Shown piece after piece: positions 3,280 to 51,592 of a DNA stretch of 64,000 nt (its first letter is position 1; every line of letters begins with the position of its first letter). Under the pieces are notes generated by a model. The model had not been told where the DNA came from. It did not search any database and saw nothing but the letters and a program-made list of their open reading frames with translations. The stretch comes from Candidatus Falkowbacteria bacterium (GTDB lineage Bacteria; Patescibacteriota; Patescibacteriia; UBA11705): the NCBI GenBank assembly GCA_003518055.1, contig DOZJ01000004.1, forward strand, positions 6,073-70,072, in the 5' to 3' direction. Made by a program: the position numbers and the translations under genes.

Positions 3280-3294
3280 CAGAAACATATCTCA

Positions 3295-3321
3295 TACCTC
3301 TCAACCCGAGGTATTTTTTTA
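3295..3321 (+). terminator. Rho-independent terminator after the SPFH gene.
   Basis: Stem tacctc/gaggta with loop tcaaccc, followed by a T7 run. Confidence 0.6.
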
Positions 3322-3391
3322 TTCTTTTTCATTAATCCAAAGCAAATATTCGCTAATTTATAACAATTTTTTACAATCATAACCGCCACCT

Positions 3392-3420
3392 TTGACACGC
3401 AGCATTTATTATGATATAAT
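3392..3420 (+). promoter_or_regulatory. Sigma-70-like promoter: TTGACA, 17-bp spacer, TATAAT.
   Basis: Exact consensus hexamers at 3392-3397 and 3415-3420. Confidence 0.55.
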
Positions 3421-3454
3421 ATAATGATACGCAAACCCACATTTGGAGGACTCC

Positions 3455-27607: not shown

Positions 27608-28367
27608 ATTTCCAAATCAAATCAAACCGCGTTCCAGTCCATTTTAATGCCGCGAAATCAGTATCAGACACCAAATCATAAATATTAATTCTGGTTCCAA
27701 ATCTCGGAATCTCATACAAAAAATTATAAATGTCAGCATCATAATTGAAATCACGGCCGAATTTTTCCTTGTATTTTTCCGTAAATTTATTATACATCTC
27801 CCCGCTGTCGATTTGAGGAAAAACCGCATCACTCACATCAATCCATTCACCATCAACATACTCCAAGAAAACCAAATCCTGATGACACAGTGGTCCGCAT
27901 CCAACCGTACTTGAAGCCACCACCGCGCCGCCGCTGGTTTTCAAAAAAACCGCTGTCACCGATACAATATCCGCCGCCAACTCCATAAAATAATTATCCT
28001 CATCAATCAACAAACGTTCGTATTGCGAAATTTGTTTTATATCATAATTGCCCAACGGTTTGTATTCATCCGGCAAGGAATTATACACCTCAACCACATC
28101 CCAGTTATTAAACGGGCCGGGAGTTGATGTTTTTTCCGACTTTTCACCGGTTTTACTCTCACCACCATCCCCATCCACCTCTGCTGATGAGCTTTTTGGA
28201 TTCAATTGTTCATCTTGGTCGATTTCATCATTTTCATTCACATTTGACCCCAACCTCAAATTCTCCACTGACAGAATCGGGCTTTCTTTTACCGGCGCGA
28301 AAAAATAAAAAACCGCGGTCGTTATCAATATAATCATTATCCCCGCGATTACGATTTTAAATTTCAT
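27606..28367 (-). CDS. Hypothetical membrane-anchored protein with an acidic linker.
   Basis: N-terminal TM segment and a D/E/G-rich segment. No recognisable domain. Confidence 0.45.
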   Translation of the reverse strand: MKFKIVIAGIMIILITTAVFYFFAPVKESPILSVENLRLGSNVNENDEIDQDEQLNPKSSSAEVDGDGGESKTGEKSEKTSTPGPFNNWDVVEVYNSLPDEYKPLGNYDIKQISQYERLLIDEDNYFMELAADIVSVTAVFLKTSGGAVVASSTVGCGPLCHQDLVFLEYVDGEWIDVSDAVFPQIDSGEMYNKFTEKYKEKFGRDFNYDADIYNFLYEIPRFGTRINIYDLVSDTDFAALKWTGTRFDLIWK

Positions 28368-28371
28368 AATT

Positions 28372-28668
28372 TTATTTTAATGGTAACCTTTTTTGTTCTC
28401 CCAGCAGTTTCAAAGATTCTTTTTGCCCTCGACCGGTTAATTTTACCTGTTCGATAAACCATTTATGCGGCGTTCTGCGACCGTAACCGATCAACAATTC
28501 CTTGTCGATCAAACTTTCCAGCGATCCGGTAATAATTTTCTGCCGCGCTTCTTTTTTTATTTTCACATTCCCCTTGTAAAATTCAACAAAAACTTTCCGC
28601 AGTGTTTTTTGCCCCGCTTTTTCCAAGCATTTCAGCAAAATAAATTTTTGCAAAGAGGAAAGTCTCAT
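28372..28668 (-). CDS. Small basic protein of 98 aa; possibly DNA- or RNA-binding.
   Basis: ORF only; Lys/Arg-rich; placed immediately upstream of 27606..28367. Confidence 0.3.
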   Translation of the reverse strand: MRLSSLQKFILLKCLEKAGQKTLRKVFVEFYKGNVKIKKEARQKIITGSLESLIDKELLIGYGRRTPHKWFIEQVKLTGRGQKESLKLLGEQKRLPLK

Positions 28669-28778
28669 ATTTTTCTTATCCGGCTAAATTTATTTCAGCA
28701 TCTCCCCTCATCAGCTTGTCTTGCTGCCATTCTACCCCAAATTCATTTAGATTCGATTCAGTTTTATTCCCCGTCAAG

Positions 28779-30170
28779 TCAAACCCCTTTAATGTGTAAT
28801 TCATTTAAAACTTCTTTTGATATTTCGCTCGGGGCCCCCATCATCAAATCCTTAGCGTCACCAGTTTTAGGAAACGCAATTACTTCTCGGATATTCTTTT
28901 CATTTAAAAGTATCGCGATGAGACGGTCCAGCCCTAATGCGATTCCACCATGTGGAGGCGGGGCGAAGCTAAAAGCCTCAAGCAAATGCCCAAAACGTAA
29001 ACTAATCTCAGTTTCATTTAATCCTAATATTTGGAACACCTTCTTTTGTAAATCACGTTCAAATATTCTTAGACTTCCGCCACCAACTTCAAACCCATTT
29101 AAGACAAGATCATATGCCTCCGCCCGCACCTTTTCTGGTTTTTCTTCCATCATGTTAATATCATCATTTTTTGGTCGAGTAAATGGATGGTGCACCGAAA
29201 CCATTTTTTTCTCCGTATCGCTATATTCAAATAAAGGGAAATCGATAATCCAACCGAATGCCAATAAATTTGGATCTTGCTCTGTGCGCAAGTCCGGTTT
29301 ATCACTTTTATACAATTTTTGTGCTTCCATATATGTTAAGCGTGGAAATGGTATTTGCTGCATTCTTAAATTCGGGAAAAGCTCTTTCACCAAATCAATC
29401 ATGGCTTTTTCTATCAATTGCAAGATATCTTCTTGATCTATAAAAGACATTTCTAAGTCAAATTGGGTAAATTCCGGTTGACGATCACCACGCTGATCTT
29501 CATCACGAAAACAGCGAACAACCTGGTAATAACGTTCAATTCCAGCAACCATTAGCAACTGCTTAAACTGTTGTGGTGATTGTGGTAAAACATAAAAATT
29601 CCCTTTATGAATCCGAGAAGGGATAACGAATTCGCGCGCACCCTCTGGCGTTCCCTTGGTCAGATAAGGCGTCTCAATTTCCCAGAAACCTTGTTTCGAA
29701 AAATAATTGCGTAAAAACAAATTTATTTCTTGCCTCTTTTTCAAATTGTTTTTTACTCGTTCACTACGAATATCCAAATACCGATATTTCAATCGCATGC
29801 CCTCACTCAATTCAAGAGTATTCTGCTCAACTTCAAAAGGCAAAGCTTCAGACTCTGAAATAATAAAAATATTTAAGACTAAAATTTCAATTCGATCCAG
29901 CTGCACTACAAAACTCTTTTGTTTATCACCCCTTTTTTGTACAATTCCGTTTATTTCAACCAACCAACCCAATCGAACGTTGCTCAAGACATCAATTGAG
30001 TGTTGATCCAAATCATTACCTACGCCGACTACCTGAACTACACCCGAACGATCCCTAATGTCTAAAAAAACAATCTTGCCCATATTACGTCTAGCTGCAA
30101 CCCAACCCTTAATCCAAACCGTCTCCCCTATTTTGCTGACTGCTTCTTCTAAAAAAATGTATTTACTCAT
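28779..30170 (-). CDS. aspS: Aspartyl-tRNA synthetase (compact form of 463 aa).
   Basis: FRDEDQRGDRQPEFTQFDLEMSF (class IIb motif 2, bacterial AspRS type); OB-fold N-terminus; motif 3 GGGSLRI. Confidence 0.8.
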   Translation of the reverse strand: MSKYIFLEEAVSKIGETVWIKGWVAARRNMGKIVFLDIRDRSGVVQVVGVGNDLDQHSIDVLSNVRLGWLVEINGIVQKRGDKQKSFVVQLDRIEILVLNIFIISESEALPFEVEQNTLELSEGMRLKYRYLDIRSERVKNNLKKRQEINLFLRNYFSKQGFWEIETPYLTKGTPEGAREFVIPSRIHKGNFYVLPQSPQQFKQLLMVAGIERYYQVVRCFRDEDQRGDRQPEFTQFDLEMSFIDQEDILQLIEKAMIDLVKELFPNLRMQQIPFPRLTYMEAQKLYKSDKPDLRTEQDPNLLAFGWIIDFPLFEYSDTEKKMVSVHHPFTRPKNDDINMMEEKPEKVRAEAYDLVLNGFEVGGGSLRIFERDLQKKVFQILGLNETEISLRFGHLLEAFSFAPPPHGGIALGLDRLIAILLNEKNIREVIAFPKTGDAKDLMMGAPSEISKEVLNELHIKGV

Positions 30171-30178
30171 AAATGTTT

Positions 30179-31153
30179 TTAGTAATCCTTTATTTGTTTT
30201 ATTATATTCTCAACTATTTTAACATTTTGCATTGCCTCATATGCTTCCGGTTCAAATTTTTTTCCCTTCATAATTGCCCAATAAAAATCGTTTAACTCTT
30301 TATTTTCAGCATCTTCAGCAACATAATCAATCTCTTTACGATTGAGACCACTATGCTTCTGAATAAACAATCCATTAAAAGGATCCACAAACAAACTACC
30401 TTTTGTACCAAAAAAATTTATATAAAATGTTTCCTGTAAAACATAGCTGGAAACTAAATGAACCAAACAACCATTATCCAGCTCAAATATCGAAGAAAAC
30501 GTTTCTGGATTTTCTGTTGTTAAAAACTTCTTTTGACATAAAGTCATAAAACTTTTACCTTCAAACCCGCAAACGAATCTGATCGTATCTATAATATGAA
30601 TTCCCATTTGAATTAGCGGCCCGCCATTACATGAAGTCCGATAATAACGCCAATTATTTTTATCAATCCGATATCCAATTGGTCTTGACCTGTTTCCATC
30701 GATTAGAATCAAATCCCCAAGAACACCAGAATTAACCATCTTTTTAGCTTTTCTAAATATAGAATAACGACGTACATTATGCCCTACAGCCAAAAGAGTT
30801 TTATTCTTTCTGCAAGCCTTCAAAATTTCGGCGCATTCAGATGACGTATTAGCAAGCGGCTTTTCAACAAAAATTTTCTTCCCTGCTTTGGCCGCAGCTA
30901 CAATTTGTTCCTTATGATATTGATTTGGAGAAAAAATAAAAACAACCTTTATCTGACTATTTACCAAAATTTTCTGAAAATCGTCAACCCCCAAACAATT
31001 TAATTTCATTGCCGTAGAATGTGTTTTATTCTTATCTGAATCAAAAACAGTCAAAATATTAAATTTATTTGTTTTTTTTATTTTCTGAATCATTTGTTGC
31101 CCCCACCAACCTAACCCAATAACAGCACAACCTATCTTATTTTTTTCTTTCAT
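30179..31153 (-). CDS. Gfo/Idh/MocA-family NAD(P)-dependent sugar oxidoreductase.
   Basis: Rossmann N-terminus IGCAVIGLGWWGQQMI; family-typical EKPLA motif. Confidence 0.7.
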   Translation of the reverse strand: MKEKNKIGCAVIGLGWWGQQMIQKIKKTNKFNILTVFDSDKNKTHSTAMKLNCLGVDDFQKILVNSQIKVVFIFSPNQYHKEQIVAAAKAGKKIFVEKPLANTSSECAEILKACRKNKTLLAVGHNVRRYSIFRKAKKMVNSGVLGDLILIDGNRSRPIGYRIDKNNWRYYRTSCNGGPLIQMGIHIIDTIRFVCGFEGKSFMTLCQKKFLTTENPETFSSIFELDNGCLVHLVSSYVLQETFYINFFGTKGSLFVDPFNGLFIQKHSGLNRKEIDYVAEDAENKELNDFYWAIMKGKKFEPEAYEAMQNVKIVENIIKQIKDY

Positions 31154-31160
31154 ACTGCAA

Positions 31161-31940
31161 TTATATTCTATTTTCTAAATAATGTTGATATAAATTTACA
31201 GGAAGATTGAATTGCCCATCAGTATATTTAATAAGTTCTTTTTTGATTTTTGAAAAATTTTTTTCCCGTTTAATAACAGCATTTCGGTTAAATTTACAAA
31301 ATAACGCTAAAGATTGCAACTCTTCATTGTTCTTCCACGGAACCCAACTTAAACCCTTTAACAATCTTATTTTATTTTTAGAATCTGGGTATGGCTCAAT
31401 ATTTAACAAATAAACTAAATCTAAAATGGAATCAAAACAATATGATAAAAGCTGTTGTGCTGAAAAATAATCCTTTCGTAATAGAAATTTTGATAAGTGG
31501 GTTGTAGTTTTAAGCCCCCGCCAGTCGTCCGAAAATTCAAGAATAACACTAAGGGCTACAAATTTATTAATTATTTTCCCGACAATCTCTTTTTTCCAAT
31601 ATTCTTTCTTAATTGCTATGATTTGCTTCAAATTTTTCTGTCTATCATAGATAATTCTCTCATCCCAAAAAGCAAAAAACATTTCGCATGACCATTCATC
31701 CAGAAACTGCTTCAAAGTTATAATTCTTACATCAAACAACTTATTATCTTTATAGTACTTACCATGAGGTATGTTTTTAGTTGTTTTTTTTACTATCACG
31801 ACAATATCAATATCAGATAAAACATCAAAATCACAACGACCATAACTTCCAGTCAAAATAGCACCCAGGCAATTTGTATTACCTCTCAAATCAACGACAT
31901 AATCATTAAGATAAAAAGGTGACTTAAACATAATTTTCAA
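31161..31940 (-). CDS. Pol-beta-superfamily nucleotidyltransferase (ANT/LinB-like minimal NTase).
   Basis: GSYGRCDFDVLSDIDIVVIV, i.e. the GS-x9-13-[DE]h[DE]h motif. Confidence 0.55.
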   Translation of the reverse strand: MKIMFKSPFYLNDYVVDLRGNTNCLGAILTGSYGRCDFDVLSDIDIVVIVKKTTKNIPHGKYYKDNKLFDVRIITLKQFLDEWSCEMFFAFWDERIIYDRQKNLKQIIAIKKEYWKKEIVGKIINKFVALSVILEFSDDWRGLKTTTHLSKFLLRKDYFSAQQLLSYCFDSILDLVYLLNIEPYPDSKNKIRLLKGLSWVPWKNNEELQSLALFCKFNRNAVIKREKNFSKIKKELIKYTDGQFNLPVNLYQHYLENRI

Positions 31941-32937
31941 TACATTTTTGACTAATATCTGAAATTTTCCGACAGTTAGAAAATAACATAGCTTTTACTA
32001 GTTCATTTTGCATTTTCCTCAACAAAGAAATAAGGCCTGGTCTACCACCACCAACAACTGCATATACGGCCTCCCGGCCTATTAACACCCCATCCGCACC
32101 CAAGGCCAAACAAATGAAAGTTTCAAAACCATTTGAAATACCACCATCAACAAGAATTGTCATTTTCCCTTTGAACGTTTTAGCTATTTGCGATAAAACT
32201 GACAATGGAGCCGCTGCATAATCAAAAGACCGCCCTCCATGGTTTGAGACAACAACGCCATCGTAACCACAATCATGAGCGATTTGAGCATCATTTAAGC
32301 TCAAAATTCCTTTTAAAAACATAGGCCCATGATATAACAATCGTATTTCTTTTAACTCCTTTGCGTTTTTTCTAAAAACTTTTTTTTCATTTGATAGAAA
32401 CACACCACCAATACCATCCAAATCAATACCAATTACTTTAACATGAACTTTTTTCAATAACATTATACGTTTTTTTATTTCATCAAAACTTCTGGGTTTA
32501 CAAACAGCAATCCCATCGTTTTGGCTCAACAACTCTGGAACATCATAATTCTGTGTTGTATCAAAGCTATCTCCACACATTCCAATCATCCCACATTTAG
32601 AACAACTAGTAAGGATCATCTTTAAAAACACTTTTTCACTAATGAAACCATTAAGATTAGATTTAATTCCACTCATGGGAGCAACCATAATTGGCGCTGA
32701 CAAATCAAAACCAAATAAAAAACTTGTTGTGTCGGGGGTAAAATTATCCCCAATAATCTGTGATTTAATCTGGTAATTCTCAAACATTTTTTTATTACGC
32801 GTATACGAAACGCCACTGCCAGCCCATCCTAAACCTGGTAAACTCATCATGCCAGAACAATAATCATTACCTGCCCTCCCACTCAATCTTTCCATTTTTT
32901 TTCTACCATTTTTTATAATCTTATCAAAATTAACCAT
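31924..32937 (-). CDS. FMN-dependent alpha-hydroxy-acid dehydrogenase/oxidase family (TIM barrel).
   Basis: VVSNHGGRSFD active-site motif; ILVDGGISNG. Confidence 0.55.
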   Translation of the reverse strand: MVNFDKIIKNGRKKMERLSGRAGNDYCSGMMSLPGLGWAGSGVSYTRNKKMFENYQIKSQIIGDNFTPDTTSFLFGFDLSAPIMVAPMSGIKSNLNGFISEKVFLKMILTSCSKCGMIGMCGDSFDTTQNYDVPELLSQNDGIAVCKPRSFDEIKKRIMLLKKVHVKVIGIDLDGIGGVFLSNEKKVFRKNAKELKEIRLLYHGPMFLKGILSLNDAQIAHDCGYDGVVVSNHGGRSFDYAAAPLSVLSQIAKTFKGKMTILVDGGISNGFETFICLALGADGVLIGREAVYAVVGGGRPGLISLLRKMQNELVKAMLFSNCRKISDISQKCIENYV

Positions 32938-34084
32938 ATAATTTGATCGCTTTCTCTAATATTGTTATTGCAAAATCAATATCTGTCTTAGTAATAATAA
33001 ATGGTGGTAACATCCGTATAACATTTTTATTAACAACATCCAATAAAAGTCCGTTATCAAAACAAAATTCAACAATCTCATTGGCGTTTAATCCGACTTC
33101 TATGCCCAGCATTAAACCCATACCCCGTATTTCGATTATAGTTTTGTATTTAATTTGTAGGGACTTCAAACGTCGAAACAAATAATCTGCTTTTTCATTT
33201 ATACTCCTAATATTCTTTTTTTTATCAAGGTAATCTAGAATATAACATCCTGCAGCGCAAGCCACAGAATTCCCCCCCATGGTACAACCATGATCTCCAG
33301 GTTTTATCACGTCGGCGATGGATTTCCGCATCAAAGTGGCCGCCAACGGGAACCCGCCCCCAAGAGATTTTGCAAGAGTAAGGATATCTGGTTTTAATTG
33401 AATTTTCTTTGATAATAACACCGACCCGCAACGACCCAACCCAGTCTGAACCTCATCAACAAATATTAGACATCCAGTTTTTTTACATTTTTGTTGTATC
33501 AAACGAACCAATTTTCTGTCCATAAGACGAATTCCACCGTGCCCTTGTAATAATTCCACATGAACAGCCAATGTCTTGCTGGAAAAAACATCTAAAAAAG
33601 CTGCACAATCATTTAATGGGATTCTTTTGATTTTAATCTTTTCAACTCTTTTCAGATTTGTCAAAGAACGTGAACCGTATGTTCTACCGACAAACGAACC
33701 ATTAAAAGAAATTAATTCATCTTGATTTTTTAATACAGTTTCGTGATATTTTTTAATGAAAACCAACGCCGCTTCATTTGCTTCTGTCCCACTATTAGAA
33801 AAAAACACACGATCCAATGAACTCATTTTTACAAGTTTTTTTGCTAAATTTATTTGCGACTCTGTAAAATAATAATTTGAAGCATGGACAACCTTATCAA
33901 TCTGACTTTTCATTACCATCTTTAATTCTTCATTAGAAAACCCCAGATTATTAATTGAAATTCCACTAATAAAATCTAGGTATCTCCGCCCACGATCGCC
34001 AAAGAGACTAACAACACTACCTGATTCAACAATCAAGGGTTTCTTATTATAGTTATTAACAAATAATTTTTGTTCAATCCCCAT
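32930..34084 (-). CDS. Class-III PLP-dependent aminotransferase.
   Basis: FFSNSGTEANEAAL; FVDEVQTGLGRCG; PLP lysine in TLAKSLGGG. Confidence 0.8.
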   Translation of the reverse strand: MGIEQKLFVNNYNKKPLIVESGSVVSLFGDRGRRYLDFISGISINNLGFSNEELKMVMKSQIDKVVHASNYYFTESQINLAKKLVKMSSLDRVFFSNSGTEANEAALVFIKKYHETVLKNQDELISFNGSFVGRTYGSRSLTNLKRVEKIKIKRIPLNDCAAFLDVFSSKTLAVHVELLQGHGGIRLMDRKLVRLIQQKCKKTGCLIFVDEVQTGLGRCGSVLLSKKIQLKPDILTLAKSLGGGFPLAATLMRKSIADVIKPGDHGCTMGGNSVACAAGCYILDYLDKKKNIRSINEKADYLFRRLKSLQIKYKTIIEIRGMGLMLGIEVGLNANEIVEFCFDNGLLLDVVNKNVIRMLPPFIITKTDIDFAITILEKAIKLYG

Positions 34085-34088
34085 AATC

Positions 34089-35237
34089 TTAGTATGTCAT
34101 CCTTTTTTCAAATTCTAATTCTACTTTTTCTAAAATAGACGCAATTTTCTTCCCAGCGCTACCATCCCCATAATATTCATTCCGTTTGTATTTTCCATGT
34201 ATCAATTGTTTCCGTATAGCGTTTATAATTTTATTTTTATCCATTGAGCAATCGATAACATTTTGACATCTTAATCTCCCTATTTGACGATTACCCACAT
34301 TAACAGACGGTACACCCAGGAATGATGATTCTCTTATTCCCACGCTCGAATTGCCTACAATACATTTTGAATTTTTTATTAACAACAAATAATCATCGGC
34401 ATTAAAATGCTTAAAAAAATGAATTTTACCGACCTTATCCATAGATTTAAAATTCAAAATTTCTTTTCGCAAAATATCTCCACCCGCATCAATATTTGGA
34501 TACATCCAAATAGTCTGCAATCCTATTATCTTTATTGCTTCTAACAAAACACGAAAATTACGAACATTCTCAATAATGTTTTTTTCAGTCGTTACGGGAT
34601 GAAAAGAAACTAGCAAATAATTATCCCCTAAAATAAACCTTTTTTCATAATCTCCCGAATCTTTTGATATAAAGATTTCTTTAGGATCATTTTTAGGTAA
34701 CCTACGACAAATATCTATTGTTGGACAACCAGTTACGAACACATTTTTTTTATCTTCTCCCATTTTAATTACACGCTTAGCACAATCTTTATTTGAAACA
34801 AAATGCAAATTAGCGAACTTAGTAATAGCATGACGAACACTATCGTCAATCGATCCTGTTATTTCACCACCTTGAATATGAGCCAAAGATATGTTCATAT
34901 AACGTGCCGCAATGGCCGCCGCCAAGGCTTCATAACGATCAGCAATCACGACAACCACATCTGGCCTATCGTGTACCAATTCAACAGCCAAATCAATCAC
35001 AGCTAAACCGGTAGATTTAGTCATCGTCAAAAGGTTGCTCCCTGAAATATTAGTATACAACACAGAAACATTGTTTGTGATTTTATTTATTTCATCTAAA
35101 ACTCCTCCATGATCTTGAATAGCCGCTGCTTCGAACACGATAATACGATAGCTATTATCTGGCAAATATTTAATAATCGGCCGCACCCTAGCAAAGTGGG
35201 CTCTGTTCCCAACAACAAAAGCGATTTTTCTTAGCAT
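34089..35237 (-). CDS. UDP-N-acetylglucosamine 2-epimerase family, NeuC/LegG-like (probably the hydrolysing type).
   Basis: ADRYEALAAAIAARYMNISLAHIQGGEITGSIDDSVRHAITKFANLHF; SFHPVTTE. Confidence 0.65.
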   Translation of the reverse strand: MLRKIAFVVGNRAHFARVRPIIKYLPDNSYRIIVFEAAAIQDHGGVLDEINKITNNVSVLYTNISGSNLLTMTKSTGLAVIDLAVELVHDRPDVVVVIADRYEALAAAIAARYMNISLAHIQGGEITGSIDDSVRHAITKFANLHFVSNKDCAKRVIKMGEDKKNVFVTGCPTIDICRRLPKNDPKEIFISKDSGDYEKRFILGDNYLLVSFHPVTTEKNIIENVRNFRVLLEAIKIIGLQTIWMYPNIDAGGDILRKEILNFKSMDKVGKIHFFKHFNADDYLLLIKNSKCIVGNSSVGIRESSFLGVPSVNVGNRQIGRLRCQNVIDCSMDKNKIINAIRKQLIHGKYKRNEYYGDGSAGKKIASILEKVELEFEKRMTY

Positions 35238-35292
35238 AAAATAAATAATATTATACTCCTATAATCATTCATAAATAAAATCACAAAAATGA

Positions 35293-36588
35293 TTACGGCG
35301 TTATCCGATTTATCATCCTCGGAAATGGAATAGTCTCCCTCACATGATGAATACCGCACATCCAGCGGGTCAATCTTTCAATCCCCATACCAAAACCGCA
35401 ATGAGGCACTGATCCGTATTTGCGCAAATCCAAATACCACTCAAAATCCGCCATTGGCAATTTCGCTTCTTCCATTCGTTGTTTTAATACCTGATAATCA
35501 TCTTCTCTCTGCGACCCGCCGATAATTTCCCCAAACCCTCTCGCCGCCAGCATGTCCGCGTTCAAAACCAAATCAGGATTGGCCGGATGCCGTTTCATGT
35601 AAAATGGTTTTATTTCTTTCGGCCAATTTTTCACTATAACAGGAACTGCCGAATCATTGGTCAATAATTCTTCATCATCAGCGCCAAGATCATCGCCATA
35701 TTTAATATCTGAACCGCGTTTTTGCAGTTCTTCAATCGCCGCCCCGTATTCATAATGAATAAACGGCTGATCAACAATCGCTTGAAGTTCTGTGGTGTCG
35801 CGTTCCAACATCTTCAATTCTTCCTGACCGTGCTCTAAAACATATTTTGCCAAATACTTAACTGCCGCTTCTTGAATTTTCAAACTGTCTTCATGCTCGC
35901 AAAAAGCGATTTCCGGATTCAATGACCAAAACTCCGTTAAATGTTTTCGGGTCTTTGATTTTTCCGCTCGAAAATTTGGACATAAATCATAAACTTTACC
36001 AAAAGACATTGCTAAGGCTTCCAAATATAGCTGCCCATTCTGAGTTAAGTAAGCTTTCCGATCAAAATACTCCACTTCAAACAAATCCGAGGTACCTTCA
36101 CAGCTTGTCGGCGTAAATGTCGGCGTATCCAACTCTTTATATCCATTATTATTAAAAAATTCCTGCAATCCCATTTTTACCAGATGACGAATTCGCAGCA
36201 CCGCCCACTGACTTTGCGCCCGGAGCCACAAATGTCTATTGTTCAACAAAAAATCCGGTCCATGCTCTTTCTTGCCGATCGGATATTCCTCCGCTATCTG
36301 AACAATCTTCAAATCAGTCACCTGCAATTCAAAAACATCATCTTGCTTCGGATGCTTTGTCACTTTACCCTGAATTTCCACCGATGATTCCAGCGTCAAC
36401 TTTTCCACCTGAACCCAAATTTCCGACGATAACTGATCTTTCACCGCTACCGCCTGAGCAAAACCGCTGCCGTCGCGGACTTGCAAAAAGGCAATTGCTC
36501 CTGAAGACCGCAAATTATAAACCCAGCCCTTGATTAAAACTGTTTGATCTTGGTTGTCTCTAAAATCTTTGATGTAGCTCTGCTGCAT
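35293..36588 (-). CDS. asnS: Asparaginyl-tRNA synthetase.
   Basis: FRAEKSKTRKHLTEFWSLNPEIAF (AsnRS motif 2); motif 3 GFGMGIERL. Confidence 0.8.
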   Translation of the reverse strand: MQQSYIKDFRDNQDQTVLIKGWVYNLRSSGAIAFLQVRDGSGFAQAVAVKDQLSSEIWVQVEKLTLESSVEIQGKVTKHPKQDDVFELQVTDLKIVQIAEEYPIGKKEHGPDFLLNNRHLWLRAQSQWAVLRIRHLVKMGLQEFFNNNGYKELDTPTFTPTSCEGTSDLFEVEYFDRKAYLTQNGQLYLEALAMSFGKVYDLCPNFRAEKSKTRKHLTEFWSLNPEIAFCEHEDSLKIQEAAVKYLAKYVLEHGQEELKMLERDTTELQAIVDQPFIHYEYGAAIEELQKRGSDIKYGDDLGADDEELLTNDSAVPVIVKNWPKEIKPFYMKRHPANPDLVLNADMLAARGFGEIIGGSQREDDYQVLKQRMEEAKLPMADFEWYLDLRKYGSVPHCGFGMGIERLTRWMCGIHHVRETIPFPRMINRITP

Positions 36589-42921: not shown

Positions 42922-44409
42922 ATGGAACATCGGCTTGAACATCAAGACCAAAACCCAATTAAAGACCGCTTCAAACAAAAAATTGAGAGCGAGCCTAATC
43001 TTGAATTTATCGATCAACTGTTCGAAATGTTCCCCGCCGCTAAAATTTATCTTGTAGGCGGAATTGTTCGAGATACCTTAATCGGTGAACACGTCAAATC
43101 AAAAGATTATGATTTTATCATCTGCGGGGTTCCCCATCAAGAGCTCGAAGCCGCGATGACCAAACTCGGCCAATGGACCTTTGCCGGTAAAAATTTCGGC
43201 GTCTACAAATTTCGGCCGTATAATTTTACTTTAAAACACGAATTTGACATTGCTCTCCCCAGAACCGAAAAAGCTCGCGGCACCGGCCGCCGCGCCGACG
43301 TCGATGTCCAATCCGACCACACCATGAAGGTCGAGGATGATCTCGGCCGCCGCGATTTAACCATCAACGCTATGGCCTGGGATCTAAGAAATCACACGTT
43401 GATTGATCCTTTTCACGGCCGCCAAGATTTACGCGACCGCAAAATTCGCTCTGTTGGCAATCCATTCGATCGTTTTACCGAAGATCGATCCCGAATGCTG
43501 AGGGCTATCCGCTTTGCCTGTAAATTTAATTTTGCCCTTGATCCTTTGACCTACGACGCTATTGAATCTTTCATGCCTCGCATCAACGATGCCGAGCTTA
43601 ATCCGGAAACCAATAAAGTCGAAAAAATCACACCGATGGAAACCGTCAAAACCGAAATTTTTAAAACCTTGGCCGCCGACCCGTCAAAAGCCTTTCGGCT
43701 ACTAGAAAAAACCGGCGCTTGGCGGGCTATATTACCTGAATTGGATATTCTGAGAAACAACCCTGAAATATGGAAACAACTGAAAACTTCACTGGAAATT
43801 TTATCCAAAGAAAATTTGGAAGCTGAGCTGGCCGAAGAATACACCCTCGATGTTTCCACTTTTCACAAATCCGGTGACTTTGTTTTTGCCGTCATTTTAT
43901 ATTATCTCAAATTAGCCCTGCCTCCACAGGTTGAAGCTAACACCAAAAAGGCTACTCGTCGAGACAACCCCATCAATCAAATTTATCATCGCTTTGTTCT
44001 GACCAATCCGGAAAAAAACAAAGCTTCATGGTTAATCGATAACATTGACGTCTTTACCACCGGTCTACCCACCAACTGGGCTGACCAAGAAAAACTTTTA
44101 GCGCACCAACACACCGCCGACGCTCTCGCTCTGGCCCTAATCATTCACCAAACCGACGATCAACTCGATGATCACCTGCGATATGAAAATCAAAAAGACG
44201 CTATCAATGCCTTTGGTCAACTTTTTGCTGCAACCGGTGAACTGCCACCACCACTTCTAAACGGCCGAGACATTTTACAAGAACTCAACATGGATAAAGG
44301 CGGACCGATTGTGGCGGAAATCCAAAAAAAATTGCGTCATTTACAGTTATCAGGCAGAATCAAAGATAAAAAGACCGCTATCGAGTGGCTTAAAACTCAT
44401 TCATTATGA
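42922..44409 (+). CDS. tRNA nucleotidyltransferase / poly(A) polymerase family (CCA- or A-adding enzyme).
   Basis: Head-domain motifs IYLVGGIVRDTLIG..DYDF and RRDLTINAMAWD. Confidence 0.75.
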   Translation: MEHRLEHQDQNPIKDRFKQKIESEPNLEFIDQLFEMFPAAKIYLVGGIVRDTLIGEHVKSKDYDFIICGVPHQELEAAMTKLGQWTFAGKNFGVYKFRPYNFTLKHEFDIALPRTEKARGTGRRADVDVQSDHTMKVEDDLGRRDLTINAMAWDLRNHTLIDPFHGRQDLRDRKIRSVGNPFDRFTEDRSRMLRAIRFACKFNFALDPLTYDAIESFMPRINDAELNPETNKVEKITPMETVKTEIFKTLAADPSKAFRLLEKTGAWRAILPELDILRNNPEIWKQLKTSLEILSKENLEAELAEEYTLDVSTFHKSGDFVFAVILYYLKLALPPQVEANTKKATRRDNPINQIYHRFVLTNPEKNKASWLIDNIDVFTTGLPTNWADQEKLLAHQHTADALALALIIHQTDDQLDDHLRYENQKDAINAFGQLFAATGELPPPLLNGRDILQELNMDKGGPIVAEIQKKLRHLQLSGRIKDKKTAIEWLKTHSL

Positions 44410-46125: not shown

Positions 46126-46950
46126 TTATAACTTCCCTCTCGCTTGAACCAACTTCATTATCTTTTCCAATTCGTAAGATGTCTCCCATGGAAATAAATT
46201 TTGTTCATGCTGACCACGGTTCACCTCACTTTTAAAATACGTTCCCACAATAACACCATCGACGTCATAATCATGAACATTATCAGGAGTAATACCACTT
46301 CCCAATAACACCGGCAGTTCCCCAGCCACCGACTTTACTTCAGACACATCTTGAACCGTCGGCGCGTCCCCTGTCCACTTACCCGTGACAATCAGAGCAT
46401 CGGCCCCTTTTTCTTCCGCTTCAGCCGCCGCCTCCGCAATCGGCCGCTTAATCAGATGCTCGGCATGCTTGACTTGAATATCCGCCAAAATTAAAACCTC
46501 ATCTGCCGCGATCTGTTTTCTATATTCCAAACATTCCTTCGCCTTTGGTTCAAACACTCCGTATTCTGTTTTAACTCGATCAACAAATACCGGCACTCTG
46601 ACAAACTGAAAATTATATTTTTTCGCTATTCTCAATGCGTTTTCATAATCATTCCATAGTAGAGAAATCCCTAAAGGCAACTTTGTTTTTTCTCTTAACA
46701 ATTCACATAAATATTCAAAATCTTGAATCGTAGACATCAAAACTTTTTCATAATGCGGCACATCATAATTATTTTCAATCATCACGCCATCGACGCCGCC
46801 TTTTTCCAACGCTTCCAAATCTGCAGACATTTTTTCTTTCAACCGATCCAGTCCCGGATAACCGGCATAGCCTGACATTGGGCCGAGATGGATCATACCA
46901 ATAATAAACGGCTTCAATTTTTTCTTAAATAATTTGCTTAATTTATTCAT
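46126..46950 (-). CDS. BtpA/SgcQ-family predicted TIM-barrel protein.
   Basis: FIIGMIHLGPMSGYAGYPG matches the BtpA family N-terminal signature. Confidence 0.55.
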   Translation of the reverse strand: MNKLSKLFKKKLKPFIIGMIHLGPMSGYAGYPGLDRLKEKMSADLEALEKGGVDGVMIENNYDVPHYEKVLMSTIQDFEYLCELLREKTKLPLGISLLWNDYENALRIAKKYNFQFVRVPVFVDRVKTEYGVFEPKAKECLEYRKQIAADEVLILADIQVKHAEHLIKRPIAEAAAEAEEKGADALIVTGKWTGDAPTVQDVSEVKSVAGELPVLLGSGITPDNVHDYDVDGVIVGTYFKSEVNRGQHEQNLFPWETSYELEKIMKLVQARGKL

Positions 46951-46999
46951 ATATCAATATTGTAAATGAAAATAAAAAAAAGAGCTAGTATTTACCAGC

Positions 47000-48187
47000 T
47001 CATTTACCGGACATCTTCTTGGGCATGAATTGCTGAATTTTTTGCATCAATTCATAAGGCTGCCCACTCATCAAACATTCCATACTCAGTTTAAACCCCT
47101 CCTCAAAAGTTGCCGCCTTTTCTGCGAGCCATAACAATACCGCCGCGTTTGCCACCACCAAATCACGAGCCGCCCCCTGAATATCTCCCTTGAGCAAAGC
47201 TAATGAAAATTGACCCTTATCACCAATCGGCGTAATCGCGTCAGCATCAATCGGGTCCAAACCAAAATCTCGTGCTTCCAACTCATATTCATGAATTTTT
47301 CCATGACGCAATTCCGCCACCATGGTTCCACCAGCGCATACTGATACTTCATCCATTCCCCGATAATGATGTTTATCGATAAAACCACGAACCACCAATA
47401 CTCGTTCAAAAAAAGTCACTCCCCTTTCATTTAATACCTGCAGGGCTTCGGCCACCACTCTGGGTTTCACCAAATGATTAACACCGATCACCCTTCGAGT
47501 CATGATTCTTGGATCAATCGGATTAGTAATGGGTCCAATAATATCATTCATGTGGGGCAGTTGCGCGATTTCATGAGTCTGCAGGTGTATTACTTTGTAA
47601 TTCGTATCAAGCGCTTCAGTATAGCCAAAACCAAATTGTTCAATCGCTAACTCAACTTCATTGCGCTTGCTGTACTCATTGATATTACAAATTAAAGCTA
47701 CAAAATCTGAACTGCCGTAACGACCTTGATCAGCGTTGGCCGGAGATCCATGTTTTCCCATGGAGATTCCCATCGCCGCCGCAATAAATGCCGCCACCGT
47801 ACTGACGTTCGGAGTCACCACCAAATCTCCACCCATGCCGCAATTATCCATTACCATCGATACCTTGGGAGTCAAAAATCCGTAACGTGACCTTCTAATA
47901 TCAGCTTCAAATATCGCTGCGCACACCCCCGCAATCTGCTCCGCCGCATTGGCTGGCAGCCGATGGCCGTGCAAATCTTCCGCTTTCTGCGACCTGACCC
48001 ATTTATAAGTCGCGTAATTATGAAGCGCGCTCAATGCCGCCACGCTCTGAATCTGAGCCAAACGATTCCCATTACATCCTTGTAGTGCATACAACCCCAA
48101 GGCATATGCCTCTTCATACGTTAACGGAATATTCTGATACGCATGATTTTTCAACACATGCTTGATGTTCACGTTCTCCATTGCCAT
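47000..48187 (-). CDS. Anthranilate phosphoribosyltransferase-like (TrpD / glycosyltransferase family 3) protein.
   Basis: MDNCGMGGDLVVTPNVSTVAAFIAAAMGISMGKHGS compared with the TrpD segment DTCGTGGDG..T.NIST..A.V.AA.G..V.KHGN. Confidence 0.6.
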   Translation of the reverse strand: MAMENVNIKHVLKNHAYQNIPLTYEEAYALGLYALQGCNGNRLAQIQSVAALSALHNYATYKWVRSQKAEDLHGHRLPANAAEQIAGVCAAIFEADIRRSRYGFLTPKVSMVMDNCGMGGDLVVTPNVSTVAAFIAAAMGISMGKHGSPANADQGRYGSSDFVALICNINEYSKRNEVELAIEQFGFGYTEALDTNYKVIHLQTHEIAQLPHMNDIIGPITNPIDPRIMTRRVIGVNHLVKPRVVAEALQVLNERGVTFFERVLVVRGFIDKHHYRGMDEVSVCAGGTMVAELRHGKIHEYELEARDFGLDPIDADAITPIGDKGQFSLALLKGDIQGAARDLVVANAAVLLWLAEKAATFEEGFKLSMECLMSGQPYELMQKIQQFMPKKMSGK

Positions 48188-48516
48188 CCCCCTGTGGTTT
48201 CGGTAATTTATTTATTGCTTCTCAATATACTCTTATCTGCTAAAACCGAGCCTATCGTCACTAGGATCAAACTCAAAGCAATTAATCCATAATTAAATCC
48301 TCTCTCGCCATTAATTACATACGCATAACCCATGGCAAAAAATGGCATAAAATATTCCAAAAAAACTAAACGTCGGAATGTTTTCGATTATTAATAAGAA
48401 AATGCTCGGACCAGATGCTGAAATCATTACTGCCACCAACTTCAACAAATATGCTTTTGTTGTTTGACTCATTTTCGTACTTCAACGCTTGTTGCTTGGG
48501 TTAATTTTTCAATGAA

Positions 48517-48800
48517 CAAAAAAACTCCTCATCATTTTCCACCTATGTTGCCATACGCGAGAAAGGATGAAGAGTCTAAAAATAGACAATCCACGGTGCC
48601 ACCTTTCTGCCGCAAGTTAATGTAACTTACGACGCTTTAGCTGCTTTGTCAATACAACACAGCCTATCCCATGGTTACGGGGGACTCCGGCTTTTCACCT
48701 GTTTAAATGCCTTAAACTAGCAAAAAGCACCTTCCTCCTATTTTGTAAAGTGGGAGGGAATCGAGCCCAACTGCTCGACCCAAAGGTTTTGTAATTTTCA
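48517..48800 (-). promoter_or_regulatory. Candidate T-box riboswitch leader on the minus strand. A T-box-like sequence with a UGGC bulge sits immediately 5' of a terminator hairpin.
   Basis: The minus strand reads AAAGGUGGCACCGUGG (reverse complement of 48591-48606), against the consensus AGGGUGGNACCGCGG. The terminator is ctcttcatc...gatgaggag plus a U7 run (reverse complement of 48517-48575). The stem has a G.U pair on the minus strand but a C.A mismatch on the plus strand. Confidence 0.4.
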
Positions 48801-48933
48801 AGTTCGTACTTAATATGTTATCAAATATACTTATTCTGTCAAATTCTTTATTGACATTATCCTATTTTTGGCATAAATTAACCTGAACGGTTCTTTAACA
48901 ACCAACCCCGAAAATCGGGGACAGGAGTCTATC

Positions 48934-49938
48934 ATGGGACAAGTGGTGGTCTCAGGTATTAGAGCTACAGGCAAAATGCATATCGGCAATTACCTTGGAG
49001 CCATGCGTTACTTCGCCACTCTGAGTCATAATTCGGAAATGGAATGTTTTTTCTTCATTGCCAACCTACACACGCTGACAACAAGGCAGGATCCGGAAGC
49101 CATCAAACATGATTTGCGGGAAATTGTCCTTGATTTTCTCGCTGCGGGTGTCAATCCGGACAGCGCGATTATTTATGCTCAATCAAGTATTCCTGAAACA
49201 TCGGAACTGTCTTGGCTCCTCACTTGTCTTTGCACGGTAAACGAACTCCAAGGTCTGCCGCATTTTAAAGAAAAAAAAGAAACCATTCAATCTCATGGAG
49301 AAATCGTTAACGCCGGTCTCCTGATTTATCCGGCTCTCATGGCCGCGGATATTCTCGGCGTCCGAGCTGAACTGGTGCCTGTCGGACAGGATCAGCGTCC
49401 TCACGTGGAATTAACGCGTGATTTGGCGCGCCGCTTCAATTCGCTCTATAGTCAAGTCTTCCCGATTCCCCAGACCCTCGAGGGTGAAGGCATCCGCGTA
49501 CCATCTTTGACCGGCGAAGGGAAAATGGGGAAAAGCGATACCACCGGCCTGATTTTTCTTGATGATTCCGCCGCTTCCGTGACTGCCAAATTAAAAGTCG
49601 CCAAAACTGATCCGGCTCGGGAACGCCGCTCTGATCCCGGAAATCCGGACCACTGCAACATTTTTACCATGCATCATATCGTCAGCACTCCTCAGGAAAT
49701 TGCTTGGGCTTCAACCGGCTGCCAGTCCGCCGGCATTGGTTGTGTCGAGTGCAAAATGGTGGTCGCCAAACACCTCAATGACATGCTTGGCCCGATTCAA
49801 GAGCGCCGTCAAGAATACGCCGCCAAAGGCCCCACCTACATTGATGAAATTCTGCATGCCGGCGGCCTGACCGCTCGCGTTCGGGTCAAAGAAACCGTTG
49901 ACCTCGTCAAAGATCTCATGGGCGTCCCCAGCTACTAA
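48934..49938 (+). CDS. trpS: Tryptophanyl-tRNA synthetase.
   Basis: The HIGH motif is HIGN (KMHIGNYLGA). KMSKS appears as KMGKS. Length 334 aa. RBS AGGAG. Confidence 0.85.
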   Translation: MGQVVVSGIRATGKMHIGNYLGAMRYFATLSHNSEMECFFFIANLHTLTTRQDPEAIKHDLREIVLDFLAAGVNPDSAIIYAQSSIPETSELSWLLTCLCTVNELQGLPHFKEKKETIQSHGEIVNAGLLIYPALMAADILGVRAELVPVGQDQRPHVELTRDLARRFNSLYSQVFPIPQTLEGEGIRVPSLTGEGKMGKSDTTGLIFLDDSAASVTAKLKVAKTDPARERRSDPGNPDHCNIFTMHHIVSTPQEIAWASTGCQSAGIGCVECKMVVAKHLNDMLGPIQERRQEYAAKGPTYIDEILHAGGLTARVRVKETVDLVKDLMGVPSY

Positions 49939-49951
49939 AAGGAGAAACTCC

Positions 49952-51466
49952 ATGGGCCGTCGAAAAACAATTTCTTATCACTGGCAAATGCCTCGTAAAA
50001 AAAATCACTCCGCTAAACTCGCTAACAAGATCAAAAACATTCCTTCACCGTATACTCCCAAAGATTTCCCTAATAAACTCCCAATGTCATACCCAGCGAC
50101 GCCTCTATCAAAATCAATTCTAGGCCGCTCGCAAGGTCTTTTGGCCAAACACATCAATGCTATTGGTAGCCACACTCACGCTGAATTTGATGAATTTGGA
50201 TTCCCCAAGTTTGCTGAAGGAGAAGGTGGATTTGAGACTATTCAACAAATCGAAGCCGAGGCTATATGGATGCTCTCTTCCGTTTTGGGAGGTACACCCC
50301 AAACGATTGATGGCTTCTTTTGCGGCGGAGGTACGGAGTCAATCCATCAAGGCATGTGGATTGGCCGTGAATGGCTGAATACCAAATCCGACAGTGCCAA
50401 AAAGGGGATCGTGGTTTTCACCACCCCGCTCGGTCACTATTCAATCGCCAAAGGGGTCGAACTAACCGGTATGGGACACCATAGTTGGGGGCAATGTACC
50501 AGATGCAACAAAAATCACATTTTTAATCCCGATACCAATGGCTGCGGACTACACTTGGTCGGTATGAATAATTCTGGTGAAATGTCGCTTAAACAGCTCG
50601 ACAAACGCTTCAAACAAAAATTCGCCGAAGGATTTCGCAAATTCATGATCGTGGCCACTGTCGGCACCAGTCTTCTTGGTTCAATCGATCCCATCAAAGA
50701 AATCGCTGATTACATCAATAAAACCCGCCGTGAAACCGGCGCGAATTTCTATCTTCATATCGACGCCAGCTTTGCCGGGTTTACCGTTCCATTTGTTGCG
50801 CCTGATTTTCAATTTGCTTTTCAGATCCCCGAAGTAATGTCTGCCACTGTCGATGGTCACAAAATGGGACAATTACCCTACCCTGCCGGAATTTTCCTTT
50901 GTCGCAAGGGATTAATGTCTCTAGTCGCTAAAAGCGTCAACTACGTTCGCGGCCATGATGATGACACCATTCCTGGATCACGAAGTTGTTTAGCTCCCAT
51001 CCTCGCTTGGTATATCATGAAAACCGAAGGTTTTGATGGTCAAAAAATGTATGTTTCCAACTGCCTGTCGCTACGAGATGAATTGTATGATAGATTAAAA
51101 CAATTACCTATCCCGACACAAGTTTTCGATCCTAATCCATGGGTCAACCAGCTTGGAGTAGCCATTAACTTTTCGGCTTTAAACGGGGTTCACAATGCAA
51201 ACTGTGGCATTCCCAAAATGATTCTTGAACCTCGACCCAATACCACACCGGAAACTGATAAATATTATCACGTAAAAGGCAAACTTGCGGCCTATCACCT
51301 CCGAGCTGATAATTTTCCCATCGATCCATCAGACACCATGAGCTGCCCGCAAACAGTTTACAAACTCTGCATCATGCCCCACCACACCCTAGCCAGTTTT
51401 GATCACTTCATTACAGATCTGGTTGAAGTTTACAACCTGTGGGAAGAAATCATTTCACGTTCATAG
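49952..51466 (+). CDS. Group-II pyridoxal-dependent decarboxylase (aromatic amino acid / glutamate decarboxylase family).
   Basis: FFCGGGTESIHQGMW; HIDASFAGF; PLP-lysine motif VDGHKMGQLPYPAGIFLCRKG. Start at the ATG preceded by AGGAG. Confidence 0.65.
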   Translation: MGRRKTISYHWQMPRKKNHSAKLANKIKNIPSPYTPKDFPNKLPMSYPATPLSKSILGRSQGLLAKHINAIGSHTHAEFDEFGFPKFAEGEGGFETIQQIEAEAIWMLSSVLGGTPQTIDGFFCGGGTESIHQGMWIGREWLNTKSDSAKKGIVVFTTPLGHYSIAKGVELTGMGHHSWGQCTRCNKNHIFNPDTNGCGLHLVGMNNSGEMSLKQLDKRFKQKFAEGFRKFMIVATVGTSLLGSIDPIKEIADYINKTRRETGANFYLHIDASFAGFTVPFVAPDFQFAFQIPEVMSATVDGHKMGQLPYPAGIFLCRKGLMSLVAKSVNYVRGHDDDTIPGSRSCLAPILAWYIMKTEGFDGQKMYVSNCLSLRDELYDRLKQLPIPTQVFDPNPWVNQLGVAINFSALNGVHNANCGIPKMILEPRPNTTPETDKYYHVKGKLAAYHLRADNFPIDPSDTMSCPQTVYKLCIMPHHTLASFDHFITDLVEVYNLWEEIISRS

Positions 51467-51519
51467 AACTCTTGACAAATTTCCAATCATCCCCTAAGAT
51501 AGAAATGTTCCTTTCCTGC

Positions 51520-51592
51520 GGGCGCATAGCTCTAATGGTAGAGCGTCGGTCTCCAAAACCGGTGGTTGGGGGTTCGAGTCCCTCTGCGCTCG
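51520..51592 (+). tRNA. tRNA-Trp (anticodon CCA). The 3' CCA is not encoded.
   Basis: Acceptor gggcgca/tgcgctc; D-arm gctc/gagc; anticodon loop ctCCAaa; T-loop TTCGAGT; discriminator G. Confidence 0.8.

Follow-up and report, generated by a model that had tools for sequence, protein, structure and literature searches.

What controls a pair of adjacent genes whose products, a TrpD-like phosphoribosyltransferase and a BtpA/SgcQ-family protein, are encoded divergently from the tryptophan--tRNA ligase gene trpS, and what does this control say about the function of the pair? The question is raised by a 64,000-nucleotide (nt) stretch of DNA from Candidatus Falkowbacteria bacterium (assembly GCA_003518055.1, contig DOZJ01000004.1, positions 6,073–70,072 of the forward strand), referred to below as the window, the host of which is a member of the Patescibacteria, or Candidate Phyla Radiation (CPR). 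An earlier reading made from the letters of the DNA, hereafter the sequence-only reading, had proposed that a tryptophan-specific T-box on the minus strand controls the pair, and comparative structure analysis together with gene context now supports this proposal. The segment 48803–48518 of the minus strand (positions are those of the window unless a homologous locus is named) is very probably a tryptophan-specific T-box riboswitch, predicted to act by transcription attenuation on the TrpD-like and BtpA genes. This conclusion draws on the sequence elements, covarying structures, specifier and discriminator match and gene contexts described below, from which we infer binding of tRNA and the direction of regulation.

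Architecture of the leader RNA

The sequence-only reading had noted, on the minus strand, a T-box-like sequence followed after about 15 nt by a terminator hairpin and a U7 run. All of these are present at 48606–48518 and belong to a longer element with the following parts.

48842–48815, minus strand: promoter-like site, with the −35 box TTGACA (48842–48837), a 16-nt spacer with TG and the −10 box TAACAT (48820–48815)
48803–48518, minus strand: complete transcriptional T-box(Trp) leader (Rfam RF00230, model R1, covariation)
48803–48784, minus strand: 5' single-stranded conserved element CUUGAAAAUUACAAAA and the 5' base-helix strand ACCU at 48787–48784 (alignment)
48781–48756, minus strand: short Stem I, GGGUCGAGC with GCUCGA-UU-CCC, apical loop AGUUGG (RNAfold; the helices covary)
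48757–48734, minus strand: variable extra hairpin CCUCC...GGAGG between Stem I and the 3' base-helix strand, giving a three-way junction (RNAfold)
48728–48690, minus strand: Stem II, GCUUUU with AAAAGC, with the conserved loop motif UGC...GUG and a lineage-specific insertion
48689–48667, minus strand: Stem IIA/B pseudoknot, with IIA formed by CGG (48689–48687) and CCG (48680–48678), and IIB by U48684 and CCC (48683–48681) with GGGA (48670–48667)
48663–48640, minus strand: linker helix GCUG...CAGC (sequence and family alignment)
48631–48611, minus strand: Stem III, CGUAAGUU-ACAUU-AACUUGCG, with purine-rich flanks UAAAG and AGAAAGG (sequence and family alignment)
48606–48591, minus strand: T-box sequence AAAGGUGGCACCGUGG
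48606–48562, minus strand: antiterminator AAAGG-(UGGCACC)-GUGGA...UUCAUCCUUU, the bulge in brackets (RNAfold and covariation)
48575–48518, minus strand: intrinsic terminator, a long imperfect hairpin and U7 at 48524–48518 (RNAfold and covariation)

Homologous leaders were collected in two ways. One genome per species was scanned for the TrpD-like gene, which yielded 60 loci (47 from bacteria and 13 from DPANN archaea; individual loci are given L numbers), and in 24 of the bacterial ones the core GGUGGNACC precedes the TrpD-like operon on its strand. Homologous leaders were also used to build R1, a covariance model for the 5' domain, which matches once in each of 27 of the 47 bacterial sources, in every case a short way 5' of the operon; the window element receives 80.5 bits (E ~1e-16, 48803–48664), and there is no match in the 13 archaeal loci or elsewhere in the window. 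To avoid circularity, metagenome contigs were scanned with the Stem IIA/B motif alone, without reference to any gene, and this gave at least 120 loci (L062–L181); all 100 of the metagenome loci searched carry a full-length R1 match (58–131 bits). The architecture of the window element recurs in 26 homologues found at genome loci and in at least 100 metagenome leaders. In the aligned leaders the elements come in the order promoter, conserved single-stranded element UUGAAAAUUACAAAA, base helix, Stem I, optional hairpin, Stem II, IIA/B pseudoknot, linker helix, Stem III, T-box sequence, long terminator and U-run. The TTGACA box lies at the same distance in most of them, with TTGACA/TAnnnT as the shared promoter pattern, and the extra hairpin is found at its position in most relatives, being missing from L010, L011, L013, L029 and L033.

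The proposed helices are borne out by covariation. Of the cells in the 5' domain, 97.4% are paired, and compensatory changes occur in 23 of its 29 pairs (slid control at most 59%); the corresponding values are 97.3% and 7 of 11 pairs for the antiterminator (control at most 62%) and 90.3% and 10 of 14 pairs for the terminator (control at most 56%). The base helix, in which ACCU (48787–48784) pairs with AGGU (48732–48729), has compensatory changes in 4/4 pairs, and Stem II has them in five of its six pairs, with loop insertions at the same position in L002, L025 and L033. IIA is invariant in 23/23 leaders, the IIB pairs covary in 4/4 cases, and the flanks of Stem III match the RRRxG-Stem III-AA motif of PMC7583486.

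The 3' part of the leader can adopt two alternative structures. The antiterminator consists of helix A1 (AAAGG, 48606–48602, with CCUUU, 48566–48562) and helix A2 (GUGGA, 48594–48590, with UUCAU, 48571–48567), joined by the 7-nt bulge UGGCACC (48601–48595); the first pair of A2 is G.U, which resembles the aminoacylation-sensing wobble pair of T-boxes (PMC7583486). The terminator core, about 15 nt 3' of the T-box sequence, pairs ACUCUUCAUC (48575–48566) with GAUGAGGAGU (48533–48524), including one U.G pair. Because both structures use 48575–48562, they are mutually exclusive. For the 92-nt segment 48609–48518, RNAfold gives a minimum-energy structure that contains the terminator (−31.1 kcal/mol, z −4.46 against shuffles), and when the 3' strand of the terminator is left out, the antiterminator with its 7-nt bulge becomes the minimum-energy structure (−15.3 kcal/mol). 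Translational control was considered and rejected on the ground that a hairpin followed by a run of at least five U is present in 97 of 99 metagenome relatives.

Some leaders carry additional features. Within Stem III, just 5' of the T-box sequence, a G+C-rich hairpin followed by 6–8 U (for example UCCGUUUUACUGACGGAUUUUUU) is present in L004, L007, L010, L019, L020, L024, L025, L032, L035 and L055 and is not found in the window copy; it could be a second terminator or a programmed pause giving time for tRNA capture. In L035 (1–440) an apparent insertion of about 190 nt separates the IIA/B region from the remaining leader, which also has a partial duplicate of a IIA/B-like segment. L004, from a genome labelled Patescibacteria, ends with a second T-box core, AAGAAGGGUGGUACCGCG, at about position 9025 of the plus strand; R1 does not match this core, which may belong to a T-box that differs in type or specificity.

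Between the terminator and the start codon of the TrpD-like gene lie about 320 nt, a gap that the sequence-only reading had raised as a caveat. The gap is real, and it is explained by the following remnant.

48472–48208, minus strand: EamA/DMT transporter gene remnant (tblastn, Pfam EamA)

It contains two overlapping short open reading frames in different frames, 48472–48311 (53 aa) and 48360–48208 (50 aa), which correspond to the N- and C-termini of an EamA protein of 316–323 aa and match, by tblastn, both ends of the L002 gene at 3051–4001; the window copy has lost about 230 codons by internal deletion. An intact EamA gene is the first after the T-box, before the TrpD-like gene, in L002, L003 and L020, and in other genomes this position is taken by a gene for a low-molecular-weight (LMW)-phosphatase-like protein or for a class-I glutamine amidotransferase (GATase). 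The two short frames were also considered as a leader peptide or a small membrane protein, which was rejected because they match both ends of the intact gene of the relatives.

Several observations weigh against the identification of the window element as a T-box riboswitch. In a local E-value search RF00230 is the best Rfam match of the intergenic region, at 30 bits (E 1e-4), far from the gathering score of 93, and at the gathering score there is no RF00230 match in the window or in any of 16 related loci. The K-turn (GA motif) expected at the base of Stem I has no confident placement in the window copy, where the three-way junction lies, and Stem I lacks the distal interdigitated T-loop platform; as a rule, a transcriptional T-box depends on a long Stem I, the distal double T-loop platform of which stacks on the tRNA elbow (PMC7583486). 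In addition, selection on the window copy could be relaxed, because the first gene past the terminator is a decayed remnant. On the other side, the cmsearch scan that the sequence-only reading had named as its check does return a T-box match, if only below the gathering score, and the RF00230 alignment covers Stem IIA, Stem III, the T-box sequence and the antiterminator with high posterior probability, Stem I being aligned poorly. An NNNGA...GA arrangement at the base of Stem I can be drawn by eye in L010, L011, L013 and L033; an S-turn within Stem II could not be placed.

The low Rfam score would also suit an ordinary intrinsic terminator, or a structure of the divergent promoter region, next to which the T-box-like 16-mer had arisen by chance, and terminator-like hairpins are not enriched in the region (8 observed against 5.9 expected). 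Such an origin is extremely improbable: no minus-strand gene ends upstream that would need a terminator, trpS running the opposite way, and a 285-nt architecture with seven covarying helices is shared by the leaders of this operon in 26 other genomes and is present on at least 100 metagenome contigs.

Tryptophan specificity and the regulon

Stem I and the specifier, which the sequence-only reading could not place with confidence, can now be assigned. UGG stands at 48769–48767 in the apical loop of Stem I, followed by the purine G at 48766, and UGG followed by G is invariant in 23/23 aligned leaders, where (U/C)UGGG falls on the 3' side or in the apical loop of the short Stem I. Among the metagenome leaders searched, 95 of 100 have (U/C/G)UGGG at the specifier position. 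The second contact agrees with the first: as had been pointed out from the letters, the bulge contains UGGC (48601–48598), the last base of which complements the discriminator G73 of the tRNA-Trp encoded nearby (G at 51592). Across the family this base is always a pyrimidine, C or U (among the metagenome leaders searched, 69 have U and 30 have C), and G73 is found in 12/12 tRNA-Trp genes that adjoin these operons; the bacterial loci contain 16 tRNA genes, 11 of them for tRNA-Trp. Judged from the specifier, the discriminator match and the gene contexts, the leader family is Trp-specific.

A T-box that senses another tRNA would have to read a different codon, and the Rfam alignment of Stem I indeed sets GGU at the model's specifier position, which with the preceding GAA would suggest glycine. 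That alignment, which also lays the K-turn over the promoter, was rejected: its posterior probability is low, and AAGGU (48733–48729) is the 3' strand of the covarying base helix. Furthermore, UGG is the only invariant triplet in the loop or bulge of Stem I, the C or U of the bulge fits G73 of tRNA-Trp and not U73, the discriminator of bacterial tRNA-Gly, and the regulon contains trpS, TrpB-like and TrpA genes. Sensing of a tRNA other than tRNA-Trp is thus barely credible.

The genes around the leader are those that the sequence-only reading had named, their identities being confirmed by Pfam, NCBIfam, ARAGORN and Rfam.

46126–46950, minus strand: BtpA/SgcQ-family TIM-barrel protein, 274 aa, second regulated gene
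47000–48187, minus strand: TrpD-like phosphoribosyltransferase, 395 aa (Glycos_transf_3, Pfam), first intact regulated gene
48934–49938, plus strand: trpS, tryptophan--tRNA ligase (TIGR00233, 297.6 bits against a cut-off of 176.75), divergently transcribed
49952–51466, plus strand: group II pyridoxal phosphate (PLP)-dependent decarboxylase, 504 aa, between trpS and tRNA-Trp (Pfam, NCBIfam)
51520–51592, plus strand: tRNA-Trp, anticodon CCA (ARAGORN and Rfam), discriminator G73 at 51592

The acceptor stem of the tRNA-Trp is GGGCGCA/UGCGCUC, followed by the discriminator G and then by CUC, with no CCA encoded, so that pairing of the T-box with the 3' NCCA end of this tRNA requires post-transcriptional addition of CCA. 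A PolyA_pol head-domain gene, 7 kb from tRNA-Trp (42922–44409, plus strand), probably encodes a CCA-adding enzyme. On the trpS side, a promoter-like site lies at 48851–48879 (plus strand), its −35 box (48851) back to back with that of the T-box (48842), and a hairpin, CCCCGAAAAUCGGGG, occupies 48906–48920 (plus strand) of the 5' untranslated region, directly 5' of the trpS ribosome-binding site.

The arrangement suggests the following course of events. Transcription would start a few bases 3' of the TTGACA/TAACAT promoter, and the apical loop of the nascent short Stem I would expose UGG (48769–48767) for pairing with the anticodon CCA of tRNA-Trp, with Stem II and the IIA/B pseudoknot probably bracing the codon–anticodon helix, by analogy with actinobacterial ileS T-boxes. 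The 3'-GCCA end of uncharged tRNA-Trp would pair with UGGC (48601–48598) of the bulge, stabilising the antiterminator (48606–48562) and permitting read-through, whereas with charged tRNA the terminator (48575–48518) and its U7 run would form and transcription would stop. Read-through would lead to synthesis of the TrpD-like phosphoribosyltransferase and the BtpA-like TIM barrel and, in relatives, also of the EamA transporter.

The metagenome leaders, having been found without reference to any gene, also reveal what else the family controls. Downstream genes were clustered and annotated, and the counts below are those among the matches listed.

trpS: downstream of at least 20 metagenome leaders
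GCS2-like ligase: downstream of at least 16
TrpB-like PLP enzyme: downstream of at least 12
AstE/AspA deacylase: downstream of at least 10
TrpD-like protein, with or without BtpA: downstream of 7–10
Glu/Leu/Phe/Val-type (ELFV) dehydrogenase: downstream of at least 5
class-II GATase: downstream of at least 5
TrpR-like protein: downstream of at least 5
double PRA-CH (HisI-like) protein: downstream of at least 4
TrpA: downstream of at least 3
Asp/Glu racemase: downstream of at least 3

The TrpB-like enzyme is 74–99% identical to proteins annotated from Staskawicz-, Falkow- and Buchananbacteria. With trpS, TrpB-like, TrpA and TrpD-like/BtpA genes among its targets, the leader class is identified as the Trp-specific T-box of Patescibacteria; the TrpD-like/BtpA operon counts among its targets. 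Taken together, the target sets suggest a broad tryptophan-scavenging regulon. Some genes recur as sets behind these leaders, namely the GCS2-like ligase with the AstE/AspA deacylase and the class-II GATase, and the TrpR-like protein with the duplicated PRA-CH protein; the GCS2-like, TrpR-like/PRA-CH, ELFV dehydrogenase and racemase sets have no obvious tie to known tryptophan pathways.

The TrpD-like/BtpA pair and its neighbours

Hundreds of proteins labelled Patescibacteria, Parcubacteria or Falkowbacteria are related to the TrpD-like protein at about 60% identity; identities within the family are 55–70% across Patescibacteria and 43–48% to DPANN archaea. By sequence and by fold its only structure matches are anthranilate phosphoribosyltransferases (AnPRT/TrpD; TIGR01245, PF00591), with an AlphaFold2 (AF2) pLDDT of 89 and Foldseek TM-scores of 0.65–0.73. 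It shares with them the fold, the two domains, the GxGGD, KHG and GSxD motifs and the DE metal site, and CGMGGD, KHG, GSSD and GMDEVS, the motifs for phosphoribosyl pyrophosphate (PRPP) and Mg, are invariant in 29 TrpD-like sequences. Identification as an enzyme of the AMP or thymidine phosphorylase type, or of the TrpD2/YbiB type, was rejected, all matches being AnPRT and the PRPP motifs being intact.

The differences from AnPRT are as consistent as the similarities. The protein is 19–27% identical to solved AnPRTs, and TIGR01245 trpD, its best NCBIfam match, scores 158.2 bits, below the equivalog cut-off of 199.05. The TrpD-like proteins have a longer N-terminal helical domain, contain several invariant Cys and His, are paired with BtpA and, in this sample, are confined to Patescibacteria and DPANN archaea. 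The Asn and Arg residues that bind anthranilate are not kept: in an alignment to 9ucw an invariant Ser148 replaces the Asn of KHGN, and an invariant His205-Glu206 replaces the Arg pair before xLG. These positions correspond to what we take to be the anthranilate contacts N138 and R193/R194 of Mycobacterium tuberculosis AnPRT, residues that are targeted in Protein Data Bank (PDB) variant entries among the Foldseek matches.

The TrpD-like protein could nevertheless be a divergent but true anthranilate phosphoribosyltransferase, the remaining canonical trp pathway being encoded elsewhere in the genome. All of the best sequence and fold matches are AnPRT/TrpD, the PRPP and Mg motifs are kept, and a T-box ahead of trp genes is a classical arrangement. 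We consider this improbable in view of the sub-threshold TIGR01245 score (158 against 199 bits), the invariant replacement of the Asn and of the Arg pair, and the conservation of the family (55–70% and 43–48% identity), which never has trpC, trpF, trpE or trpB adjoining. Moreover, a tblastn search with all regulon families, covering the 64-kb window, found no TrpB-like, TrpA or other trp gene within it.

The BtpA-like protein scores above the subfamily cut-off of TIGR00259 (182 bits against 153.4; PF03437, 183.9 bits) and, like the rest of the BtpA/SgcQ family, is predicted to be a (beta/alpha)8 phosphate-binding barrel: its AF2 model is a TIM barrel with the beta/alpha pattern and a pLDDT of 92.8. 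It has no match in the PDB by sequence, and Foldseek returns generic phosphate-binding barrels, TrpA first (TM-score 0.60, 15% identity) and then KDO8PS, RPE, HisF and TrpF. The family is without established enzymatic activity, and here its member stands in a T-box(Trp)-controlled operon with a phosphoribosyltransferase; a literature search found no paper on BtpA together with TrpD or on the enzymology of BtpA. A terminator-like hairpin, GAGCUGGUAAAUACUAGCUC, followed by U8 (46982–47001, minus strand) lies between the stop codon of the TrpD-like gene and the start codon of the BtpA gene and may be a partial terminator or an mRNA-stabilising structure within the operon.

The pair is conserved together and with tryptophan genes. 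A BtpA gene was found in 51 of 61 loci, directly 3' of the TrpD-like gene in most of the 61, and trpS lies no more than 4 kb from the TrpD-like gene in 26 of the 61, six of these being archaeal. The genes also occur on one strand, as trpS-TrpDlike-BtpA in L045 (archaeal) and as TrpDlike-BtpA-trpS in L012, L025 and L049, and in L025 a single T-box precedes all three. We infer for the pair a PRPP-dependent reaction, the acceptor being a compound different from anthranilate, that would raise tryptophan availability.

A different function would be compatible with a true riboswitch, namely that the pair is a nucleoside, PRPP or pentose salvage module serving general starvation, for which the charging of tRNA-Trp is a proxy. 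Genes for PfkB, HAD, NUDIX, M20, AstE/AspA, GNAT and IU-nucleoside hydrolase proteins are inserted in the operon of various relatives, and some of them (PfkB kinase, HAD phosphatases, NUDIX, IU-nucleoside hydrolase) are characteristic of ribosyl and nucleotide metabolism. Nucleotide salvage is a known trait of both Patescibacteria and DPANN archaea, and the replacement of the anthranilate-contact residues fits salvage as well. However, the pair is tied to trpS and tRNA-Trp in bacteria and archaea alike, including the single-strand orders of L045, L012, L025 and L049, the other targets of the same riboswitch are tryptophan-supply genes, and known T-box targets are amino-acid genes, that is, genes for aminoacyl-tRNA synthetases and for amino-acid biosynthesis and transport (PMC7583486). 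On balance we regard a salvage role as unlikely, although it is the more serious of the two alternatives for the function of the pair.

A role in tryptophan supply may be stated more specifically, as a tentative proposal that we hold to be possible. The TrpD-like protein and BtpA might form an unrecognised PRPP-dependent route that starts from a scavenged compound different from anthranilate and leads to tryptophan, or to indole to be used by the TrpB-like enzyme; this route might be shared between Patescibacteria and DPANN archaea by horizontal transfer and, in the bacteria, be controlled by a distinct platform-less class of transcriptional T-box. Both groups consist of ultra-small symbiotic organisms that are usually described as unable to make amino acids themselves.

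An IU-type nucleoside hydrolase gene lies 3' of the TrpD-like gene in the archaeal (DPANN) loci L054 (5721–6620) and L061 (5709–6614), in which no BtpA gene was found, and in the bacterial locus L031 (6071–6988), where it comes after BtpA.

The PLP decarboxylase stands beside trpS and/or tRNA-Trp in 10 loci. The sequence-only reading had suggested that it acts on tryptophan or aromatic amino acids, which finds no support here: among solved structures it is closest to serine and histidine decarboxylases and to MfnA. In 10 bacterial loci (L009, L018, L029, L034, L037, L039, L041, L053, L055 and L056) a fusion of a type II chorismate mutase with an S-adenosylmethionine (SAM) methyltransferase, about 386 aa long, stands beside trpS and takes the place of the decarboxylase.

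Two features concern the window as a whole. GC skew is strongly negative throughout (−0.13 to −0.31 in 4-kb bins) despite the presence of genes on both strands; a comparable strand disparity is reported from a Microgenomates genome (PMC7143001). G+C content is about 0.35 at 28001–36000, against 0.42–0.51 elsewhere in the window, and this segment may be an island or a region of other origin.

Relation to known T-boxes and significance

By its core defining features the window element is a member of the T-box family and, at the same time, a structural variant in a phylum outside the current models. With the transcriptional T-boxes of Firmicutes (RF00230; trp operon leaders and Bacillus subtilis rtpA-ycbK) it shares a specifier followed by a purine, Stem II, the IIA/B pseudoknot, Stem III with purine-rich flanks, the 7-nt UGGNACC bulge with N matched to the discriminator, and an antiterminator that competes with an intrinsic terminator. 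The targets are likewise tryptophan-related and in relatives include an EamA-family transporter, ycbK being an EamA-type gene under a Trp T-box. In contrast to the Firmicutes elements, the leaders of Patescibacteria have a short Stem I, with the specifier of the window copy in its apical loop, and lack the AG bay, the distal-loop platform and the S-turn specifier loop, while many have the extra hairpin that forms a three-way junction. In 100 metagenome relatives the median length of what lies above the specifier is 20 nt, too short for an AG bay and a distal loop.

A truncated Stem I is known from the translational ileS T-boxes of actinobacteria, in which Stem I is intermediate or ultrashort, the specifier lies in a bulge or in the apical loop, and Stem II and the IIA/B pseudoknot are essential (Sherwood et al. 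2015, via PMC7583486). The leaders of Patescibacteria resemble these in the truncated Stem I, the lack of an elbow platform and the conserved Stem II and IIA/B, which presumably hold the anticodon. The actinobacterial elements, however, act on translation by sequestering the Shine-Dalgarno sequence, whereas those of Patescibacteria are transcriptional (terminator and U-run in 97/99); the two groups also differ in the amino acid, Ile versus Trp, and in phylum. The family described here thus joins a decoding module of the actinobacterial type to a transcriptional read-out of the Firmicute type.

A literature search found no paper linking T-boxes to Patescibacteria/CPR lineages. The present analysis extends T-box regulation to this phylum, in which the elements are missed at curated Rfam thresholds. 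The platform has been tied to the need of transcriptional T-boxes for quick capture of tRNA (PMC7583486), and a transcriptional leader with a platform-less short Stem I is a natural test case for co-transcriptional tRNA capture. The analysis also outlines a wider tryptophan-scavenging regulon, with TrpB-like, TrpA, amino-acid dehydrogenase, racemase and deacylase genes. Finally, the riboswitch tags its targets as tryptophan-related and so provides the first functional lead for the conserved TrpD-like/BtpA pair of CPR bacteria and DPANN archaea.

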